20,000 nucleotides of DNA from an uncultured virus (IMG/VR IMGVR_UViG_3300037843_000618). Lineage: Duplodnaviria > Heunggongvirae > Uroviricota > Caudoviricetes. The position numbers and the translations under genes are program-made. The DNA is taken from IMG/VR virus record IMGVR_UViG_3300037843_000618; one strand, written 5' to 3'. The notes beneath the pieces were generated by a model. The model saw only the letters and a program-made list of their open reading frames with translations. It was not told the DNA's origin and made no database searches. Positions 4-14,669 of this stretch are shown here, one piece after another; position 1 is the first letter of the stretch; each line of letters opens with the position of its first letter.

Positions 4-1584
4 TCATTCTGTAATACCCGATTTCCTATAGGCCTTCCACAACGTGAGCTTGGCTTTCAGGTAGCTCACGTGTGGCGGCATGGGTGGCTGATTTGGGAGC
101 TTATGCGGGTGTTTGGCGTCGTCCAAGGCGTGTTTACCGAGATACGCCTGAAGCTCTGGTAGGGTATTACCACTCCCCTTGATCTTGTCCCAAGCATGAT
201 GCAACCAGCCGTCGTGTAATACTTGGATTTGTTCCTGCGGTTTGACTGGGTCAGACCAGTTGTCATGCTCTGCGTAATTCCACCCAAGGTCTTTCATGTA
301 TTGATTTAATCCTGCTTGGATGTCCCCCGCCGCCTGTTTGGCGACAGCCTTTACGTCGCTGGCGGTTATACGGCGAGTGGCAAGTCCATTAGACTGGAGA
401 CCCAGCCGCTTCGCCAGTTTCGTCAAGGCGGCGGCAAGTTCAAAGCGCAGGTCTTCATGGCGACGGTTTTCAACTGACTGTTGAAGCTTTTCTAAAATCG
501 CCTCGCCTTCTTGCACAACCCGGTTCAGGTCGTTGGTCATCACTATTTCTTCGGGGGTGAGGGGTCCTTTTTCCGGTTTGTAGGTGAGATCGTGGCAGAT
601 TTCGGACCACGCGTGCATGAGCACGGACGCGACCTGAATCTCGACGTTTGTGTCCGCATACTGGTATTCGTCCTTGTGAAGAGATTGGGGTTTCAGTCTG
701 ACAAGGTAGTGCGTGGCGACGTAGCCGATGCCGTCCCTCGGCCCCCTGTCCTCGGGAAAGTTCTTGGGCTTCCGCATCAAGGTGAACCGCTGTTCGATAA
801 GCTGACCCACGGCGGTGCGGTCGTTGGGCAGGTACAGCGCCACGCGGACCCCGGCAAGGTCCACGATGTCGTCGTAGATGTCCTGGAAGGACTGGTAATT
901 CTTTGTTTTGTTGCGCTCAAGGAGCTTTCCCTTGAGCTTGCGGGGCTTCTTGGCACGGTAGGTCACGATGGCGCGGATTCCGGCTTCTTGGAGGGCGTCC
1001 GCAAGGTGCTCGTGGACTTTCTCGGCGACCTTATCGAAGTACTCGAACTCGTGCTTGTACAGCTTGACGAAGGCGTCGATCAGGGAGAGCTTCTCCTCCT
1101 CGGCGACGTGGCGCTTGTCTTCGTGCTTCTCGGCACGCTCCTCGTGTATCTCCCCCTCGTGCTCCTCGGCTTCTGGCAGTTCCCTCATGGCAGCGTCGAG
1201 GAACTCGTCGAATGGGACTTCCGTGATCTCGCCCAGCGCCTCCTCCGGCATGTGCTCCAGGTACAGCTTTTCGGCCTCTTCGAGGGAGTCGAACCCGAGC
1301 ATGACCTTGTACTCGTCGAATTTTCCGTCCTTCATCTGCTCCAGCACGTAGACGTACTCGGAATCCTCGTTGGGGCCGATGTACACGTCCACGTGGTCGT
1401 CGTCGTCTGCGTCCACCGTGCTCGGGATGTAGCCGTAGTCGCACTTCATGTCCATCTTCCAGCTTTCCCCGTTGTCATGCTTGCCAACGCGGACGCTTCC
1501 CTTAGGCCACTCGATGATGATGGGGATACCGTGGAACTCGGTGCTGTGCATGTTCGGCAACTTGTCTGCGGTCACGGATTTCAT
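4..1584 (-). CDS. Fusion of phage-type inorganic pyrophosphatase-like (InPase) domain and RelA/SpoT small-alarmone-synthetase-like domain, 526 aa
   Basis: N-terminal IEWPKGSVR...DYGYI...DADDDDHVDVYIGP...FDEYKVMLGF resembles PPase-like InPase domains. The central part carries RelA/SpoT synthetase motifs RAKxxxxLxxKL, DIVDLAGVRV, GYVATHY and EIQVASVLMHAWSEICHDLTYK. Confidence 0.85.
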   Translation of the reverse strand: MKSVTADKLPNMHSTEFHGIPIIIEWPKGSVRVGKHDNGESWKMDMKCDYGYIPSTVDADDDDHVDVYIGPNEDSEYVYVLEQMKDGKFDEYKVMLGFDSLEEAEKLYLEHMPEEALGEITEVPFDEFLDAAMRELPEAEEHEGEIHEERAEKHEDKRHVAEEEKLSLIDAFVKLYKHEFEYFDKVAEKVHEHLADALQEAGIRAIVTYRAKKPRKLKGKLLERNKTKNYQSFQDIYDDIVDLAGVRVALYLPNDRTAVGQLIEQRFTLMRKPKNFPEDRGPRDGIGYVATHYLVRLKPQSLHKDEYQYADTNVEIQVASVLMHAWSEICHDLTYKPEKGPLTPEEIVMTNDLNRVVQEGEAILEKLQQSVENRRHEDLRFELAAALTKLAKRLGLQSNGLATRRITASDVKAVAKQAAGDIQAGLNQYMKDLGWNYAEHDNWSDPVKPQEQIQVLHDGWLHHAWDKIKGSGNTLPELQAYLGKHALDDAKHPHKLPNQPPMPPHVSYLKAKLTLWKAYRKSGITE

Positions 1585-3076: not shown

Positions 3077-3424
3077 TTACTCGTTTTCTGGAAGATCGTC
3101 GTAGTACTTTTTAAGGGACTCTTTGAGATTGTCTAGTTCGCGGTTGCTGGCCTCCTCGACTTCGGGCGTGAAGGCCACGTTGCCGTGCCAGCCGTCGATA
3201 GACGCCATGCCTCGGTTGTACTGGGCAGGACAGGGCAGGATCACGCCGCCGTTCCCGTCCGGGAGAGGGTTGCCCTGCTTGTCGAATGAATGCCCGGTGA
3301 AGGCGATACCCCATGCCTTGCGCAACTCTTGCCAGTCCCCGTGCTCATTACAAAACTGACAATTGTCTTCAGGTGCATGCAGAATACGGGGGTCGCAATG
3401 GGGAAACTGTTGGATGTGCTTCAT
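3077..3424 (-). CDS. Hypothetical protein, 115 aa, Cys/His-rich N-terminus
   Basis: Clean ORF with HCD..LH...CQFC. Preceded by TGGTATCAT-5 nt-ATG, an extended -10-like element suggesting a leaderless transcript. Confidence 0.7.
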   Translation of the reverse strand: MKHIQQFPHCDPRILHAPEDNCQFCNEHGDWQELRKAWGIAFTGHSFDKQGNPLPDGNGGVILPCPAQYNRGMASIDGWHGNVAFTPEVEEASNRELDNLKESLKKYYDDLPENE

Positions 3425-3442
3425 GCCTTATGATACCACGAA

Positions 3443-3763
3443 TCAGCCACCGGCACCGGAGTCAACATTGGGGGCTGCGGGAGCCGGAGGCGTAGCATTG
3501 GCGTTTGCCGTATTGGTGTTGTCCACGTTCACAACCGTGGTCGAGCTTTTGTCAGGCCAGATTTGGCTACCCACGAAATGACCGCCCAGCAGCGCGTAGA
3601 AACTGAAGACCGTGCCTTGGACATTCGGTCCCAAGTCCCTCCCTGTATGCCAGTGCCAAGCCAAGATCGCCGCCTGGAAAACGCAGGCGATAGGGATGTG
3701 GAAATAGTTCTGTAGCCTGTCCAGCCACGGTTGGAGCTTGGGAAGACATTTCTTGAAGTCCAT
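3443..3763 (-). CDS. Small membrane protein (two hydrophobic segments; possibly holin-like), 106 aa
   Basis: Hydrophobic stretches FHIPIACVFQAAILAW and TVFSFYALLGGHFVG, with a Pro/Ala/Asn-rich tail. The holin role is inference only. Confidence 0.6.
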   Translation of the reverse strand: MDFKKCLPKLQPWLDRLQNYFHIPIACVFQAAILAWHWHTGRDLGPNVQGTVFSFYALLGGHFVGSQIWPDKSSTTVVNVDNTNTANANATPPAPAAPNVDSGAGG

Positions 3764-3771
3764 AGGAGAAT

Positions 3772-3795
3772 CCCCTCATTTGAGGGGTGGAAAGT
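3772..3795 (-). promoter_or_regulatory. Recurrent upstream motif copy (ACTTTCCACCCCTCAAATGAGGGG) containing an inverted repeat
   Basis: Motif match; CCCCTCA-TT-TGAGGGG palindrome; 8 nt upstream of the ATG at 3763. Confidence 0.5.
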
Positions 3796-3804
3796 GGGAA
3801 ACCT

Positions 3805-3834
3805 TTGCCAAAAATCCCGCCGATATGGTATCCT
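3805..3834 (+). promoter_or_regulatory. Sigma70-type promoter driving the candidate ncRNA
   Basis: TTGCCA (3805-3810), 18-nt spacer ending TGG, TATCCT (3829-3834). Predicted +1 near G3841, exactly where the closing stem begins. Confidence 0.65.
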
Positions 3835-3840
3835 ATGTAT

Positions 3841-4144
3841 GTGGACGGCTTGACCGAACCAATTCCCTGCCGGGGAATAAGGTGTGTCCCGCGTGAAGAA
3901 CGCTGGGATGGCGGTACAGGCGTTTGCGCGATAAGGCTGAAATAGCCGGGGTCGTACAACCCCGAGCGACGTAAGAACCCGTCAAACCGTAACCATACAC
4001 TGACGGCTGTATCGGGTTGCAGGCAACCAGTCCTGCCCAGTGCCGCAAGGCAACGCTTAGGCAGATCACCAAAGCGGCTGGTGGCTGAAACAATCGTGCG
4101 ATGTCCAAGGCTTATCCGTAATCAGTAATCGGATAGCCGTCCAC
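3841..4144 (+). ncRNA. Candidate large structured non-coding RNA of unrecognised class (~304 nt)
   Basis: 5' GTGGACGGCT (3841-3850) is the exact reverse complement of AGCCGTCCAC (4135-4144). About nine internal helices, including a GCAA tetraloop hairpin. No credible ORF. Promoter upstream and terminator downstream. Confidence 0.75.
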
Positions 4145-4163
4145 GCTTATCTTATAATACTTT

Positions 4164-4205
4164 GCCCACCCGACTGCTTTTGGCGCTCGGGTGGGCTGTT
4201 TTTTT
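4164..4205 (+). terminator. Intrinsic (rho-independent) terminator
   Basis: 10-bp stem GCCCACCCGA (4164-4173) / TCGGGTGGGC (4187-4196) followed by TG and T7. Confidence 0.85.
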
Positions 4206-4213
4206 GGTATAAT
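4205..4213 (+). promoter_or_regulatory. Extended -10 promoter (TGGTATAAT)
   Basis: Consensus TGnTATAAT overlapping the terminator T-tract, upstream of GAGGTG RBS and the ATG at 4234. Confidence 0.6.
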
Positions 4214-4233
4214 CTGGGTATGAGGTGTTCTCT

Positions 4234-4458
4234 ATGTTGGCCGAGATCGTCTACACGGCGGTGATCTGGGAAAGCGAGCGCGGCTGGGGCAAGCGCCTCG
4301 ACGAGACCAAGGAGTTCGAGACCGAGAAGGCCCGGGACAAGTTCATCGCGAAATTCAACTCAAAGAACAATGAGCCTGTCACGCCCGACTGGTACATGTA
4401 CGCGGAAAGTGGTGCGGACATCGTCCGGCCCCGCTCAAAGCGCAAGAAGCGCAAGTGA
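4234..4458 (+). CDS. Hypothetical protein, 74 aa
   Basis: GAGGTG RBS before ATG 4234; WESERGWG...PDWYMYA; GTGA overlap with the next gene. Confidence 0.75.
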   Translation: MLAEIVYTAVIWESERGWGKRLDETKEFETEKARDKFIAKFNSKNNEPVTPDWYMYAESGADIVRPRSKRKKRK

Positions 4459-4889
4459 CACTCTCCGAGTTCATCCTCGCCTGGCGTTCGCTCGCGCCGA
4501 CTGTAAGGGGGAAGTGCTTCTACTGCGGCAGGCAGACCAGCAAGGACGGCAAGCCGAAGCACGCCCATTTCCAAACGAAAGACCACGTGGTCCCGAAGAG
4601 CGCGATGAGCCATGCCCTACGAAACGCGGGGATACCGCACGGTAACTGTGTGATTTGCTGCCGGAAGTGCAACAGCGCGAAGGAGGACCTCACGATGCAG
4701 GAGTTCAAGCTCCGCAGCGGGATCGGGACCTTCTACGCGGAGGAGGTCCTCGGGACGCGGATCGACGACCTCAGCGACATCGCCGAGGTCACCCTCCACA
4801 TCGTGAATACCCGCAGGGTCGATGGGCGCAGTATCAAGTTCCATGGGAAACCCGAACCTCGCGTCCGACCTGCTAGTCAGCAAGCCTGA
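4455..4889 (+). CDS. HNH endonuclease, 144 aa
   Basis: CFYCG...TKDHVVPKS...GNCVICCRKCNSAK, a Zn-binding HNH signature. Confidence 0.85.
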   Translation: MTLSEFILAWRSLAPTVRGKCFYCGRQTSKDGKPKHAHFQTKDHVVPKSAMSHALRNAGIPHGNCVICCRKCNSAKEDLTMQEFKLRSGIGTFYAEEVLGTRIDDLSDIAEVTLHIVNTRRVDGRSIKFHGKPEPRVRPASQQA

Positions 4890-9664: not shown

Positions 9665-12352
9665 CTACGACTGGGTTGTCCAGACCGCTCCCGATATTTG
9701 CACCGCCGCAGACGAGTTGACCGAAATCTGCTTCCCCGATGTGCTCACGTAGTAAGGCTCCCCGTCCCCAGCGTGGTTGAGGACTCCGCTGCTGATGAGC
9801 AGAACGGGGCCGGTGAATGTGACGGGGATGCTGTTTGTGTCTTGAATAGTTATATTCGTCGTCGTCGTCGTGTTGCAGTTGACCAGGAACAGGCGCATTA
9901 CCCTGACGGTCTTTCCGGCCACCGCTGCGGGACCGATGTTGTTCACCCCCAAGGTGTTGAAGTTGACAGGCGTGCAGGTCCAGTTCGCGGTCGCCGGGGA
10001 GCCGGGGCGGATGCGATGGCTGCCCTGCAAATCGACAGATTGGAGAACTTGGTCGCCTTCCGTCCAAGGTCCCGGAGGCGCGGCGTTTGCGACGGCGGGC
10101 AGAACGCCGACGTTCGTCGCGGTGGGCGCGGCGTTGTTGTTGCTCAGGGTTCCCACGACCGTGGCATTCAGAAGGGAAGCGGTGCCTTGGCTGACTACCC
10201 ACGGCGATGTTGACTGTGTGACGCCGACAGACCCAGTGATCCCGACAGTTCCGCTCACCGTGACAGCCGGGGTGTTATTGGGGGAGATGGCAACGACCAG
10301 AGCCGGGTCGGTCGCAATTGCGGCGGTGGAAGCCGCCTTGACCGCAGCGATGTTCGTCCCGTCCGTGACCTTGATCGGCCAAGCGTTTCCCGTCGAGTTC
10401 GGGGTCCCCTGGCTGCTGTTCACGGTGATCGTACCCGTGTTGACCGTGCTGCTGACGTTCGGGGCGGCCAAGCCCTGCACGGTGTAGCTGACCACGGCCT
10501 CCGGCGCGGGGGGCGACCCAGTGCCCGAGATGGCGGTGTCATTGAAGATGCGGAAGTAGTTGAAGCCCGTGATGTTGAAGATAAACGCGGCAGCACCGGA
10601 CGTCCCGATGAGGGAGTACACGCCGTTGAACGTCATTTGCGTCCCAACGTTGACACCCGCCAATGCGATCCAATGGATGTTGTCGATGCTCACCTGGAAC
10701 GTGAGCGAGCCTGCGCTTATGGAACCGCTTGAGACGACCTCGACCGCCACGGAGTTGTAGTGGAGCGAGTTGCTCACCATGATCAGTGGGGCGGTGTGGG
10801 TCGGGTCGTATGTGTACGCCCCGACGCTGGCGGCCCCGGAGCCGCTCATGTTCAGGGCCGCCTCGGTCGAGATGTTCACGTTGGCGTAAGTCCCGGTGGG
10901 GGTCGTCCCGGCGAGCACGGAGCGGACAAGCTGCCCGTGCATGCCCGAGGTCAGGATGTCTGCGAGGTCGGTGATCACACCGTTGATCGGATTCGCCTTC
11001 AGGGTTGTTTGCAGCCTGAAGGTTGCCTGGGTCACCGACCCGTTCGTGTAAACAACTTGGTAGTATTGCCGCTTAACGGGGAAGATGAAGCTCTGCCCGG
11101 TCGGAAGCACGTCGGTGGCGGTAACGTAGGCTATGTCGAAGTCCCCCACATTCACGCCGTCTTCCGACCAATTGACAACCAGGCCAGCCGTGGAAGTCGC
11201 CGCCGAAATTTGGTCGGTGTCCACCGCGATCTGGAGCGCCGAGTAGCCCAGCGCGGAGTGCCACGCGCCCGTGAAGGCGAAGGTCGCCGACAGGGGGGTT
11301 GTCGAGGAGTTCCCCGCGTCAACGACGTCGTTCCCGGTTACCGTGCCCGAGACGCGGAGGGTTGGCTCCGCAGGTGATCCTGTGGTCTCCACCACGCTGG
11401 CAAGCGTCGTCAGGCTGGCTTCCGCCGCCAAATCTTGGACGACCCACGGGGAGGTCGATTGCGTTACGGCGACCGTGCCAGTGACCGTCGTCGATGCAAG
11501 GGAGACGACCCACGGGGAAGTTGATTGAGTTACGGCGACGGTGCCGGTCACGCTGACTGCTGATTGGTCGGAGGCTATGACTACCGGAACGGACGAGACC
11601 GAGACTTTTTGCCCGAGTGTCGTGGCTGTGCCGCCCCACTGGGAAACGTTCACGCTGGAGGAACTGCCGCCGACCTGCACGTTGACGTTCAGGTTGCCAC
11701 TGGCATCGACATGCAGGTTTTCAAGTAGACCGCTGGGGTTCTGCGCCCCCACAAGGATTGGGTTAAGGGGCGATGGCGGGCTTGCGCCGTTTGCCGTGGG
11801 CAGGTATGTGCCGGGAGGAAAGACGCCTTGCACCAGCGGGTCGGCCCATAGCGCGGTCGTGTTTCCGGGCTGAGAGATCAAAATCTCCCCAGCGTGCATC
11901 GGCAGGTTGCCGTCGATGTTTACCGTGCCGATCTCGTTCGCGTTGAGCACGCCCGAGCCTGCGTAGCCGAGGGACGCGCCGGTGCCGACGACCATGGCGG
12001 CGGTTGTGTTAGTGCCGGAGGTGATCACGCCAAAGCTGGGCGTTCCCCCTGCGGAGTACCATGCGCTGACATCCCCGCCAATGTCGGACGTCCAGACGAC
12101 GGCGGTGTAGCCGCCGCCGGGGCTTGGTGCGCTGCCGTTGAAGTCCGGGCTGGAGACCGGGGTGCCGTTTACGGAGACGGTCGATCCGCCCCCCGAGATC
12201 ATGGAGGAGTCTATCTTACCGGATGATGCGAGCAGGACGACCTTGCCCGCGTCCGCAGCGCCGCCAGAGGCCTGCACCGCGCCAACCAGAGACTCGTTGA
12301 GCGGTCCGCCAGGCTTCGTCTGCGTGACCTTGAACGTCTTGAATGTGTCCAT
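9665..12352 (-). CDS. Large putative virion structural / tail-fibre-like protein, 895 aa
   Basis: Very Thr/Ser/Val/Gly-rich with internal repeats; N-terminal SGGAADAGKVVLLASSGKIDSSMI segment of the kind seen in phage fibre proteins. Confidence 0.75.
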   Translation of the reverse strand: MDTFKTFKVTQTKPGGPLNESLVGAVQASGGAADAGKVVLLASSGKIDSSMISGGGSTVSVNGTPVSSPDFNGSAPSPGGGYTAVVWTSDIGGDVSAWYSAGGTPSFGVITSGTNTTAAMVVGTGASLGYAGSGVLNANEIGTVNIDGNLPMHAGEILISQPGNTTALWADPLVQGVFPPGTYLPTANGASPPSPLNPILVGAQNPSGLLENLHVDASGNLNVNVQVGGSSSSVNVSQWGGTATTLGQKVSVSSVPVVIASDQSAVSVTGTVAVTQSTSPWVVSLASTTVTGTVAVTQSTSPWVVQDLAAEASLTTLASVVETTGSPAEPTLRVSGTVTGNDVVDAGNSSTTPLSATFAFTGAWHSALGYSALQIAVDTDQISAATSTAGLVVNWSEDGVNVGDFDIAYVTATDVLPTGQSFIFPVKRQYYQVVYTNGSVTQATFRLQTTLKANPINGVITDLADILTSGMHGQLVRSVLAGTTPTGTYANVNISTEAALNMSGSGAASVGAYTYDPTHTAPLIMVSNSLHYNSVAVEVVSSGSISAGSLTFQVSIDNIHWIALAGVNVGTQMTFNGVYSLIGTSGAAAFIFNITGFNYFRIFNDTAISGTGSPPAPEAVVSYTVQGLAAPNVSSTVNTGTITVNSSQGTPNSTGNAWPIKVTDGTNIAAVKAASTAAIATDPALVVAISPNNTPAVTVSGTVGITGSVGVTQSTSPWVVSQGTASLLNATVVGTLSNNNAAPTATNVGVLPAVANAAPPGPWTEGDQVLQSVDLQGSHRIRPGSPATANWTCTPVNFNTLGVNNIGPAAVAGKTVRVMRLFLVNCNTTTTTNITIQDTNSIPVTFTGPVLLISSGVLNHAGDGEPYYVSTSGKQISVNSSAAVQISGAVWTTQS
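10193..11551 (-). repeat. Three copies of a 48-nt / 16-aa repeat VTGTVAVTQSTSPWVV (11504-11551, 11438-11485, variant 10193-10240)
   Basis: Read directly from protein and DNA; synonymous positions differ between copies. Confidence 0.9.
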
Positions 12353-12653: not shown

Positions 12654-13115
12654 TCAAATTTCCTCGCCGAAAGAATTCGCTATAGATTTTGCGCGGCCCA
12701 GCGTAACGCTGTCAACCCTCGGCTCCCTCAGGTTCGGGTTCGCCGCGAAGTGCCTCCGCACCTTTTCCGCTTCCTCGGCTTCGATGCGTGTGTTGTGCGT
12801 GATAATATTCGGGCGGCTGATGCTGAGTCCCGGCAACACAGCTAAGATTTCCCTCGCCTTGCAGCGCAGTTCTCCCGCAAGCTCGCTCACCCGTGTCCTC
12901 GCGGTCTTCATGGCGATCTTCGGTTCCACTGTTGCACCCGCAAGTTCCCTGAAATGCTTGCGTACTTCTTCCGCAGTGACGAGGCTTATCCGGCTCGAAT
13001 GAGTCTTCTTTTCGATGACGCCGATTTCCGGCAAATAGTCAATGACGGTTTTAGCTTTCACTTTAAGCTCGCGAGATAGCTCATTGATCCAAATCTCCTT
13101 CGGTTCCAGGTTCAT
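12654..13115 (-). CDS. Protein of two tandem translation initiation factor IF-2 N-terminal-like domains, 153 aa
   Basis: Repeats IWINELSRELKVKAKTVIDYLPEIGV..KKTHSSRI....AEEVRKHF and TRVSELAGELRCKAREILAVLPGL...THNTRIEAEEAEKVRRHF. ATGA overlap with the ligase stop; no GTPase domain. Confidence 0.8.
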   Translation of the reverse strand: MNLEPKEIWINELSRELKVKAKTVIDYLPEIGVIEKKTHSSRISLVTAEEVRKHFRELAGATVEPKIAMKTARTRVSELAGELRCKAREILAVLPGLSISRPNIITHNTRIEAEEAEKVRRHFAANPNLREPRVDSVTLGRAKSIANSFGEEI

Positions 13116-14140
13116 CTGTGTTGTTGTTCCTTTCTCAGCCCGTTGAACTCCACTGGCTTGCTCATCCAATGCTCGTCCGTCTGCACATGACCGCGCCGAA
13201 CATACTTGCCGACCACGAACGGGTATTCCCGCATGTGGAAGGAGCGAGCAGGGCGGGCGACAATGCCTTCCTGCTTGTCCGGGTGGATCGTCGCGCACAA
13301 TTCTTTGCACAGCGCGTCGCTGTACGGGCCGCGATGGATGACCGGGACGTGCTCAAGCCCAAGAAGCTGCGTCCATTCGACCGTCTCGTCCCATGCCAGG
13401 CACGTCAGTCCGTGCCACACGCCGAAGACCATAAAGTATGACGGCAGCCCACTGTATTTGATGCTGTGTTTCGCCGTTAGGTTCTCGCCGCACACGCGGT
13501 AATTTTTCGGTATGTCGTAGCTGCATGCCGCGTGGATCACCTTGATGAACGTTCGGCTGGGGTGCGCCTCGAACTCCAGCGACCGGGCGTGCAGGTCTCC
13601 GTTGTAAAATGTCGTGCCCTCGCCGTCCATCTTTTCGGTGAACACGTACTCGACGCCCTCCCACTCCTCGGTGCTCTTGAGCATCCGGTCGTCGTTCTGT
13701 AGGTTCGGACTCCATTTGAAATGAAAAGTTCTGGGGTACTTAATCCGATCAGTAAAGAAGTCTAGGACAGGTCGCAGGATTTTTTGGACAGGCTCTTCGT
13801 AAAAAAGCTCCCCCATCATCCTAGTCCCGTTTGAAAGGATCATGTTTCCCCACTTGTCGTACTCTTGATCCGAGAAAAAATGCGATGGCAGAACTATTTG
13901 CTCAATGTTTGCTTTAGCCCTGAGGGTTGTGCAGGAAATGAGCGTAGCTTCCGCAGCCAGATGGCACGTTTCACATAACATGACTCCGTTTTTGATGTAG
14001 TATCCTCCATCTGAAAATAATCTGCGCTCTACGATATGGTGGGCGTCTACACCTAGAAGACCGCAATTGACACAGCGATGCTTATCTCGCGTGAAAACTG
14101 CTTCACGGAACTGGTCGCGGGTTAGAAGTAGCCCTGACAT
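13112..14140 (-). CDS. RNA ligase (nucleotidyltransferase family) with N-terminal HNH domain, ~342 aa
   Basis: N-terminal RDKHRCVNCG...DAHHI...NGVMLCETCH; ligase motifs KYPRTFH, TEKMDGE (I), CGEN (III), FMVFGV (IIIa), EGIVAR (IV), KYVR (V). Start uncertain (14140 or 14164). Confidence 0.85.
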   Translation of the reverse strand: MSGLLLTRDQFREAVFTRDKHRCVNCGLLGVDAHHIVERRLFSDGGYYIKNGVMLCETCHLAAEATLISCTTLRAKANIEQIVLPSHFFSDQEYDKWGNMILSNGTRMMGELFYEEPVQKILRPVLDFFTDRIKYPRTFHFKWSPNLQNDDRMLKSTEEWEGVEYVFTEKMDGEGTTFYNGDLHARSLEFEAHPSRTFIKVIHAACSYDIPKNYRVCGENLTAKHSIKYSGLPSYFMVFGVWHGLTCLAWDETVEWTQLLGLEHVPVIHRGPYSDALCKELCATIHPDKQEGIVARPARSFHMREYPFVVGKYVRRGHVQTDEHWMSKPVEFNGLRKEQQHR

Positions 14141-14669
14141 GGTCTTCTGCGGTGCAGCCTCCATATTTCTTAGCGTTGTGGCAGTTCGCACAAAGCAGTT
14201 GTAGATCGTCGCGTTTCCCTTGCTTGAGGACAAGCTGATAGAACCTGCCGCCTCTAACTGATGCTGGAATTGATCGTCGTTCCTTTGCTCCATCATTGTT
14301 TTTGTGGTCTAGTTGCAAATGCTTTTGGTTGTCATCGCCGCAGGCTATTCCACTCGCGATGCAGGCACACTTCCCGCCGTACAATTCCAATACGTCAAGT
14401 CTGATCTGCCGATACTGCTTTTTGCCTTTCTCCCTCTCGCGTTCACGGCAGACCTTGCAAGTACTACGTCCTGTTACAGCCTTTCGCACTAAACATGACC
14501 TGCAAGTTCCTTTTGGTCGTCTAGCTTTTTGCCGTGCCGATATATCGCATCGGTCAGCCGCACACTCGTCGCACCGGACAATCCCCGCTCGCGGTGGTAA
14601 CTTACCGCAAGTGACACAAACGCCTTGTTCTTTCCGCCGATGGTAGAGTCGTAGTTGTGCTGATGCCAT
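14103..14669 (-). CDS. Free-standing HNH-type (probable homing) endonuclease with CxxC repeats, 188 aa
   Basis: Four N-terminal CxxC pairs, then YGGKCAC...LQLDHKNNDG...LQLLCANCHNAK; lower GC than the flanks. Confidence 0.8.
   Translation of the reverse strand: MASAQLRLYHRRKEQGVCVTCGKLPPRAGIVRCDECAADRCDISARQKARRPKGTCRSCLVRKAVTGRSTCKVCREREREKGKKQYRQIRLDVLELYGGKCACIASGIACGDDNQKHLQLDHKNNDGAKERRSIPASVRGGRFYQLVLKQGKRDDLQLLCANCHNAKKYGGCTAEDHVRATSNPRPVP

Follow-up and report, generated by a model that had tools for sequence, protein, structure and literature searches.

The question raised by this locus is whether a densely structured interval in an uncultured Caudoviricetes virus specifies a free-standing RNA and, if it does, what kind of RNA that is. 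The interval lies in IMG/VR record IMGVR_UViG_3300037843_000618, of which we analyzed one stretch of 20,000 nucleotides (nt), referred to here as the window. An earlier reading made from the letters of the window (the sequence-only reading) had described a self-contained phage noncoding RNA gene of unrecognised class at 3805-4205. We found that the structured RNA proper, 304 nt at 3841-4144 (+) bounded by the two strands of its closing helix P1, is one member of an uncatalogued RNA family that has at least 38 distinct sequences and is absent from Rfam 15. The evidence supports a distant kinship with the phage RNA manA (RF01745), and palindromes that switch in two of the hairpin loops suggest that copies of this stand-alone RNA assemble with one another.

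The RNA gene and its covarying fold

With the RNA as query, blastn against phage records matched two records and no others, both of 735 kb and titled "uncultured phage"; identity was 76.8% across 97 nt. Two invariant blocks from this comparison served as patterns for scanning sequence collections; three scans of viral contigs returned 10, 14 and 9 loci, a scan of metagenome contigs returned 39, and a scan of a genome collection returned 5. Two pattern matches, L029 and L078, were dropped as false and were protein-coding in appearance. The viral and metagenome loci reduce to the 38 distinct sequences, 35 of which were aligned with MAFFT (alignment A2). The other three, L045, L050 and L067, are truncated by contig ends and were left out, although their cores match model R1, one of two covariance models that each cover part of the RNA and whose expectation values (E) are rough. 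Model R1 describes a 114-position core from P4 to P9, and model R2 describes the 5' module only. The RNA is 302-313 nt long in 31 of the 35 aligned sequences and 321-346 nt in the remaining 4.

The alignment yielded a consensus fold of ten main helices (P1-P10), a sub-helix (P2a) and two pseudoknots, and we consider this fold strongly supported. RNAalifold placed 60 pairs, 43 of which keep pairing through changes on both sides. Covariation was counted over 71 pairs, made up of the RNAalifold pairs, two P1 pairs and the two pseudoknots, and double compensatory changes were present in 51 of them. Over these pairs, 93.9% of alignment cells were paired, compared with 72.6% after shuffling (0 of 500 shuffles as high) and 35-46% when partners were slid by 1-3 columns; the corresponding covariation scores were 0.596, 0.188 and at most 0.129. 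Because the sequences are kin, the shuffle controls overstate significance, and a fairer gauge is given by the slid partners and by how many distinct pair types occur. The MAFFT alignments leave P3, the P4 extension and the P9 insert imperfectly aligned.

All features of the fold lie on the plus strand, and their helix numbers in the alignment are given in brackets. P1 (helix 1) pairs 3841-3849 with 4136-4144; the partner of the 10 bases from 3841 is 4135-4144, and all 10 pairs show double changes, which bears out the closing stem of the sequence-only reading. Inside it, at 3851-3885, is a 5' module of the type found in manA, in which P2 (ACC 3853-3855/GGU 3881-3883) and the P2a hairpin (3862-3867/3873-3878; helices 2 and 3 together with P2) are split by the internal loop GAACCAA/UAA. 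The P3 hairpin (helix 5) at 3886-3909 has stems 3886-3890/3905-3909 and 3891-3894/3900-3903; its loop is GAAGA in the window, whereas 33 of the 35 members have GAAA closed by U-A. Two long-range helices follow, P4 (3926-3932/4093-4099; helix 6) and P5 (3935-3938/4083-4086; helix 7), whose strands make up the GAAYAA/UAA internal-loop module a second time, with the 3' strands within 4083-4099 flanking GAAACA. The P6 hairpin (3945-3952/3959-3967; helix 8) has the loop CGUACA at 3953-3958, which contains the palindrome GUAC at 3954-3957.

P7 (3976-3981/4013-4018; helix 9) is paired in 98.8% of cells, with double changes in 4 pairs, and carries a large apical loop that holds the invariant stretches CAAAYCG and CUGUAU. 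Next to it is the P8 hairpin (GCAGG 4019-4023/CCUGC 4032-4036; helix 11) with a conserved 8-nt loop. P9 (4037-4041/4077-4081; helix 12) is paired in 100% of cells, has double changes in 5 of 5 pairs, and encloses two hairpins. The first, P9a at 4042-4051, has a GCAA tetraloop and is present in six sequences (the window, L042 and the L001 group), where its GNRA loop is GCAA, GUAA or GAAA; the second, P9b at 4054-4076, has a loop with the palindrome GAUC at 4064-4067. The last hairpin is P10 (AUCCG 4114-4118/CGGAU 4130-4134; helix 13), with the 11-nt loop UAAUCAGUAAU.

A scan of column pairs, followed by inspection, showed that the P2a loop and the P10 loop dock adjacent to one another on a single 9-nt strand, ACUGACGGC at 3999-4007 (ACUGA|CGGC). 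In pseudoknot 1 (PK1; helix 4), GCCG of the P2a loop (3869-3872) pairs with CGGC at 4004-4007; 93.6% of cells are paired, and 3 of the 4 pairs have double changes. Partner variants among the members are GCCG/CGGC, GCCA/UGGC, GAAG/CUUC, GACA/UGUC, GAUG/CAUC and GACU/GGUC, with GAUA/UAUC in L045. In pseudoknot 2 (PK2; helix 10), UCAGU of the P10 loop (4122-4126) pairs with ACUGA at 3999-4003, and compensated variants are UCAUU/GAUGA, UCACU/(U)GUGA and UCCAU/AUGGA. At one core pair of PK2 (columns 197/360) we counted CG in 30 sequences, AU in 2, GC in 1, UA in 1 and no pairing in 1. The fifth pair (196/361) forms in just 13 of 35 sequences, so the conserved core of PK2 is 4 bp.

The sequence-only reading was right about the architecture as a whole, a self-contained and densely structured plus-strand RNA with tertiary pairings, and about several of its parts. 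Its ATTCCC/GGGAAT helix is P2a, its hairpin at 3886-3909 is P3, and its GGGGT/ACCCC helix is the inner part of P6. Eight other helices and a pseudoknot that it proposed are not conserved among the 35 homologues. Cells were paired at 60% for the CCGA/TCGG extension of the closing stem, 37% for CGGTACAG/CTGTATCG, 76% for GGTTG/CAACC and 60% for the pseudoknot GTGTG/TACAC. The CCGTCA/TGACGG helix (66%) overlaps the covarying P7, and GGCT/AGCC, though paired at 89%, has no double changes and clashes with P5 and P6. CTGCC/GGCAG (49%), TGCC/GGCA (43%) and CACCA/TGGTG (57%) sit in the variable insert that aligns poorly. Taken together, these unconfirmed helices are paired in 57.9% of cells (range 37-89%), and most clash with covarying helices. 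The long-range P4, P5, P7, P8 and P9 and both covarying pseudoknots were not among the helices it listed.

The plus strand folded at -147.2 kcal/mol (z = -3.9), with 0 of 100 shuffles as low. The minus strand also gave z = -3.3, so energy alone does not choose the strand, and we therefore counted G-U and A-C combinations at paired positions. There were 207 G-U cells and 21 A-C cells, an excess which indicates that the plus strand is the RNA.

The gene seems to be a transcription unit in its own right, with a sigma-70-like promoter in front and a terminator behind. The promoter TTGCCA-18-TATCCT that had been proposed is present at 3805-3834 (+), with the -35 box TTGCCA at 3805-3810, an 18-nt spacer and a TG-extended -10 box, TATCCT, at 3829-3834; the predicted +1 is at about 3841. 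Nine of 12 consensus positions match, and a pattern scan found two such sites in 3300-4700 where 0.9 were expected. By eye, the closest relative, L042, has TTGGGG-18-TATTCC at the equivalent position, also with 18-nt spacing. A box of the type GYTCTTTGAAA recurs 2-39 nt upstream of P1 in 13 of 28 loci, and several loci carry, 20-30 nt farther upstream, a motif similar to the Bacteroidota -7 promoter box. At the 3' end, the proposed terminator was seen in the fold at 4164-4205 (+) as a 10-bp GC-rich stem (4164-4173/4187-4196) followed by a T-run to 4205; this hairpin (4164-4196) escaped the pattern scanner, whose loop limit of 8 nt it exceeds. At the equivalent position L042 carries a T-run and a hairpin unlike this one, and many relatives, including AT-rich members, have either a T-run straight after P1 or a separate hairpin. 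Just 3' of the T-run, 4206-4235 holds a TATAAT box (4208-4213) and a Shine-Dalgarno-like GAGGTG, and an open reading frame (ORF) of 77 amino acids begins there, so this downstream ORF seems to have its own promoter.

Metatranscriptome contigs from four runs in three studies (peat and soil) cover parts of 3862-4104 at about 90-95% identity. At this identity the contigs stem from relatives and not from the window's exact sequence, and the stretches that they leave uncovered, 3500-3861 and 4105-4600, are thus uninformative about the flanks. We regard the contigs as a weak sign of expression that covers part of the proposed transcript.

Relation to manA

No Rfam family reached its gathering score anywhere in the window, so the earlier description of the RNA as belonging to no recognised class holds at threshold. 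RNase P, transfer-messenger RNA (tmRNA), transfer RNA (tRNA), 6S RNA and introns, whose hallmarks the sequence-only reading had not recognised in the RNA, were also without a match in 3700-4300 at E up to 10. In this permissive search the best match was manA, with 23.8 bits (E = 4.8e-4) compared with a cut-off of 55.2 bits, and no other family fell on the RNA; three more matches, at chance level (E 5.2-6), sit upstream of it. Of 20 further loci, 17 also had a match of the manA model to the RNA, at 16.5-31.3 bits, and 3 had none; in a separate set of 5 loci, 2 had one (17.3 and 16.9 bits). True manA RNAs score 96.6-181.6 bits, and neither the window nor its relatives attain the gathering cut-off.

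The window aligns to the manA model at the closing helix, in the 5' module and in the last hairpin, and insertions of 36, 34, 61 and 77 nt take up the middle. P1 aligns to the manA enclosing stem, a terminal helix around a multi-helix junction. The 5' module aligns with high posterior probability through its short helix, GAAYAA internal loop, hairpin and UAAGGU return. The last hairpin, 4114-4134, aligns to model positions 160-183, and we compared it by eye with three manA sequences. The manA central domain, a three-hairpin arm and a long bulged arm, is absent from the alignment.

The likeness was also found in the opposite direction. Model R2, which scores 36.9 bits at the window, matched the 5' module in 3 of 3 true manA RNAs, those of S-CREM1 (23.8 bits, E = 9e-4), S-SSM7 (20.0 bits, E = 0.0095) and P-SSM2 (16.5 bits, E = 0.08; all in a 55-kb search). 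It gave weaker second matches in L081 and L083 at the P4/P5 region, where the second GAAYAA/UAA loop lies, so that the 5' module appears to have been duplicated. The R1 core had 0 matches in the genome of the manA-bearing cyanophage S-CREM1. A blastn search with the S-CREM1 manA found just itself, and manA examples were gathered with the Rfam model, which was positive in 2 of 5 cyanophage records.

Together these data support a distant, enlarged relative of manA, one that would be related at the periphery and have a different and larger centre. Both are phage RNAs with a terminal helix round a multi-helix junction, a GUGAC-GAAYAA/hairpin/UAAGGU module, a last hairpin with an 11-nt UA...AAU loop beside the closing helix, and loop-loop pairings of 4-5 bp, and both occur either flush against tRNA genes or as their own unit. 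The present RNAs differ in length (about 300 nt compared with about 190-215 nt for manA), in the doubled GAAYAA module and in the central domain P3-P9, which is absent from a manA-bearing cyanophage. They also have two palindromic loops; we noticed none by eye in three manA sequences, which are too few to serve as evidence. Finally, their phages come from gut, rumen, peat and soil, whereas manA is carried by marine cyanophages. The family thus connects the marine cyanophage RNA with phages of Bacteroidota-rich and peat communities. We found no published enlarged manA-like RNA family in a full-text literature search whose reach ended short of most subscription journals and motif-listing supplements, and the manA, phage and tRNA terms led to no description of one in the accessible parts of two survey papers.

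The initial proposal for manA was a riboswitch (Weinberg et al. 2010, PMC2864571). In the genomes that we examined, the S-CREM1 manA lies flush between tRNA-Leu and tRNA-Asn, the S-SSM7 manA abuts tRNA-Gly, and the P-SSM2 manA is closely preceded by a TATAAT box and followed by a U-run. Such a context speaks less for a leader than for a free RNA that is either cut out during tRNA processing or transcribed from a promoter of its own. The S-CREM1 stretch in question, 9745-10643 (L074), interleaves wcaG, manA and abiF RNAs with five tRNA genes in 0.9 kb. The setting of the present family is similar. There are tRNA or tmRNA genes within the fetched flanks (a few hundred bases) of 10 of 31 loci, and more with longer flanks. 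In L044 and L065 the RNA sits between two tRNA-Met genes, 6-11 nt away, and in L041 a phage tmRNA gene at 69-411 (-) (77.6 bits, tag peptide GNYNPVYALA) lies about 25 nt past the 3' end of the RNA. The window has no tRNA in its 20 kb. The family lends weight to the idea that RNAs of the manA type are products in their own right and not riboswitches.

Palindromic loops, proposed self-assembly and rival explanations

Two hairpin loops of the RNA switch among palindromes. The P6 loop follows the pattern N-tetramer-A, and its tetramer is self-complementary (with G-U allowed) in all 35 distinct cores, being GGCC in 24, GGCU in 4, GCGC in 3, GUAC in 3 and GGUC in 1. The window has GUAC where its sister L042 has GGCC, and a tree built without the loop columns indicated at least two origins of GUAC and at least one of GCGC. 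In the P9b loop, 26 distinct inserts carry AGCU (13), GAUC (6) or AAUU (4), with ACGU in L021 and CGCG in L041, and six further members have AGCU. Adjacent bases of a small loop cannot pair together within one chain, so each of the two loops, P6 and P9b, most likely forms a kissing contact with its counterpart in another copy.

There is precedent for this in other large RNAs. Kretsch et al. 2025 (PMC12286853) read palindrome switching in loop L9.3 of OLE and loop L21a of GOLLD as intermolecular pairing, with kissing loops visible in cryo-electron microscopy (cryo-EM), and describe the symmetric kissing loops of OLE and GOLLD as switching among tetramers such as GGCC, GAUC and AGCU. According to the preprint bioRxiv 10.64898/2026.07.01.735769, manA RNAs assemble into decamers built from pentamers and into a 60-mer cage via intermolecular kissing loops and a GNRA-receptor contact.

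The sequence-only reading had compared the RNA in kind with ROOL and GOLLD, and the comparison held: the RNA is phage-borne, its relatives lie near tRNA islands, and its loops covary as palindromes. In PMC12286853, ROOL and GOLLD are likewise phage or prophage RNAs, often near tRNA islands, and share with OLE a wealth of helices and pseudoknots. There is no sequence kinship, and ROOL, GOLLD and OLE are roughly 500-800 nt or longer; the Rfam models of all three matched neither at the gathering score nor at E up to 10, and the 304 nt of the present RNA compare with more than about 500 nt for ROOL and GOLLD. Multimer structures have been solved for ROOL, GOLLD and OLE, whereas here multimers are predicted.

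We therefore favor, with some confidence but well short of certainty, a stand-alone, self-assembling manA-type RNA that works as an RNA-only homo-oligomer. Each molecule would offer two distinct two-fold symmetric loop-loop interfaces, P6-P6' and P9b-P9b', and with two such interfaces, chains, rings or closed shells could be built. The assembly could also draw on the GNRA loops and the pseudoknots. PK1 and PK2 may be intramolecular, joining the P1-proximal hairpins to the P7 loop, or could alternatively work in trans, as the manA kissing loops do in cryo-EM. Speculatively, we guess that the assembly may act as a phage scaffold or compartment tied to a tRNA/translation island. A bolder form, in which this uncatalogued phage RNA with a manA-type core and two independent kissing loops assembles closed RNA-only rings or cages in infected cells, is a tentative proposal that we rate as possible but somewhat doubtful; if true, RNA-only compartments would be a recurrent device of tRNA-island phages, from marine cyanophages to the phages of gut, rumen and peat.

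To our knowledge, natural protein-free RNA multimers are few, namely OLE, ROOL, GOLLD and, from a 2026 preprint, manA, and we know of no established function for any of them. The family adds a well-defined candidate of about 300 nt with very clean covariation, two pseudoknots and two palindrome-switching loops, and its small size makes it suited to direct cryo-EM and to mutation of one interface at a time.

Several points weigh against self-assembly of a manA-type RNA. Oligomerization is deduced from sequence alone, and the palindromic loops might be sites for dimeric proteins or DNA-level palindromes. One insert type, that of L047 and L048, has no perfect P9b palindrome, and the palindromes of L021 and L041 were read by eye. 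Covariation cannot separate cis from trans for PK1 and PK2, and one lineage, the L007-type sequences, has a G-A mismatch in PK2. P1 pairs in just 77% of cells in the MAFFT alignment, a figure that is partly due to misaligned ends. Every manA score is far under the Rfam cut-off of 55.2 bits, and the core has no match in S-CREM1, so the homology rests on two peripheral modules. The promoter is only a nine-of-12 match, and the RNA-library contigs are assemblies of relatives in which DNA carry-over is possible and transcript ends and strand are not readable. Even for manA, no established function is known to us.

Of the rival explanations, the one that survives best, though we consider it unlikely, holds that the RNA is compact and monomeric and acts together with a protein or a small molecule, that the palindromic hairpins are dimeric-protein sites or simply stable hairpins, and that both pseudoknots are intramolecular. 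The two adjacent pseudoknots on one strand tie together hairpins that flank P1, which makes a cis-folded core plausible, and the P6 stem and loop form a perfect palindrome that is also a DNA inverted repeat; R1 matches the reverse strand of this repeat in L007. The riboswitch proposal for manA points the same way, and the complex conserved fold and the invariant unpaired nucleotides are what one would see in a riboswitch or leader. The RNA nevertheless differs from a riboswitch or leader in having its own promoter-like site and terminator, in lacking a consistent downstream gene, and in lying between tRNAs in relatives. The RNA does not sit in the 5' UTR of a consistent gene class with an expression platform, as the terminator precedes the next ORF, downstream sequences vary among loci, and the RNA of L044 and L065 is enclosed by tRNA genes; the terminator or T-run after P1 and the variable downstream genes make cis-regulation unlikely in general. 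There is no recurring protein neighbour either, the flanks being tRNAs, tmRNA, other RNAs or unrelated ORFs depending on the locus. Adjacent loop bases that switch among five palindromes are, moreover, what RNA-RNA pairing in trans predicts on the argument of PMC12286853.

Less likely still is a catalytic or translation-related RNA of the tRNA island, such as a tRNA-processing ribozyme, a tRNA decoy or a ribosome binder, for which oligomerization would be incidental. Relatives do lie in or beside tRNA arrays, and in one locus beside a tmRNA gene; the window encodes an RNA ligase, a protein with IF2_N domains and a protein with a RelA/SpoT domain; and the many unpaired stretches that are strictly invariant, GACGUAAGAA and CUGUAU among them, hint at a precisely built active or binding site. 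But even with E allowed to reach 10, no family of RNase P, tmRNA, tRNA, T-box or ribozyme matches the RNA, the window is free of tRNAs, and we found no cleavage-site or substrate-pairing feature in the RNA.

That there is no functional RNA here, but a coding region, a DNA-level repeat or a chance fold, is refuted within the reach of sequence analysis: a minus-strand ORF of 91 amino acids does span 3833-4108, and 12 of the 35 homologues have a longest minus-strand open stretch that no more than 15 of 300 shuffles reach, but the open frame shifts between sequences, the three anchor-relative frames hold 117, 96 and 93 stops and leave just one of the 35 sequences free of stops in any given frame, and lengths differ by non-multiples of three, so that the ORF was rejected as coding and the conserved reading frame that the sequence-only reading had named as a possible refutation is absent, while the 51 compensated pairs and the excess of G-U over A-C cells both speak for an RNA.

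Carriers and neighbouring elements

The contigs that carry the family are of phage or resemble phage, and they come from metagenomes of gut, rumen, peat and soil. Its carriers include IMG/VR contigs of 195-287 kb, among them a 225-kb genome with terminal repeats that is rated complete. The 4 true matches in the genome collection are metagenome-bin contigs labelled Bacteroidales (one of them Candidatus Cryptobacteroides), Mycoplasmatota or "uncultured bacterium". Across the RNA region, the 35-kb contig L070 from a peat metagenome is identical to the window. The stretch itself is present in DNA runs from peat and wetland metagenomes, and six further runs in six studies hold 0.52-0.96 of its sampled words. 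The RNA is single-copy in the four large phage records that were searched whole (735, 287, 195 and 225 kb), with exactly one R1 match in each.

The window is phage-like DNA, with PHROG and Pfam matches to an exonuclease, several HNH endonucleases, an ATP-dependent protease-like AAA protein and a DNA ligase. At 4-1584 (-) it encodes a 526-amino-acid protein with an N-terminal "InPase" pyrophosphatase-type domain (1.3e-35) and a RelA/SpoT nucleotidyltransferase domain (1.2e-11); the "InPase" domain also matches parts of large phage virion and DarB-like proteins in PHROGs. A 218-amino-acid protein with two IF2_N-type stretches is encoded at 12654-13310 (-), and the RNA ligase (PHROG, 4e-110), with an HNH endonuclease domain inserted toward its N-terminal side, at 13112-14296 (-). 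These two ORFs overlap by about 200 nt, so one of the starts is probably miscalled.

In the megaphage-type loci L004, L007, L009, L010, L011 and L001, the RNA is flanked by conserved, ORF-free, GC-richer blocks, for example on the reverse strand of L004 at 1-360 and 700-960. The upstream block and the RNA are both preceded by the box GTTCTTTGAAA. The downstream block has a sub-threshold match to the Bacteroides small RNA BTnc231 (29.2 bits, compared with a cut-off of 80.4) and a terminator at its end. These blocks look like further uncatalogued RNAs of one array.

Other elements near the RNA were seen in smaller sets of loci. L035 at 816-889 (-) and L081 at 398-470 (-) have tRNA genes with the anticodon CUA, labelled "Pyl" by ARAGORN, a hint of amber-stop recoding or suppression in these phages. 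In L035, L043, L050 and L060 a conserved block of about 90 nt lies directly 3' of the RNA, with a T-arm-like GGTTCAAATCC/GGTCCGAATCC hairpin at its end. This block is not called as a tRNA by ARAGORN or by Rfam, and it may be a tRNA-like or permuted element. Downstream of the RNA in L046, beside a tRNA-Met gene, 1150-1202 (+) gave a weak match to the Y-RNA-like YrlA (31.6 bits, compared with a cut-off of 69).

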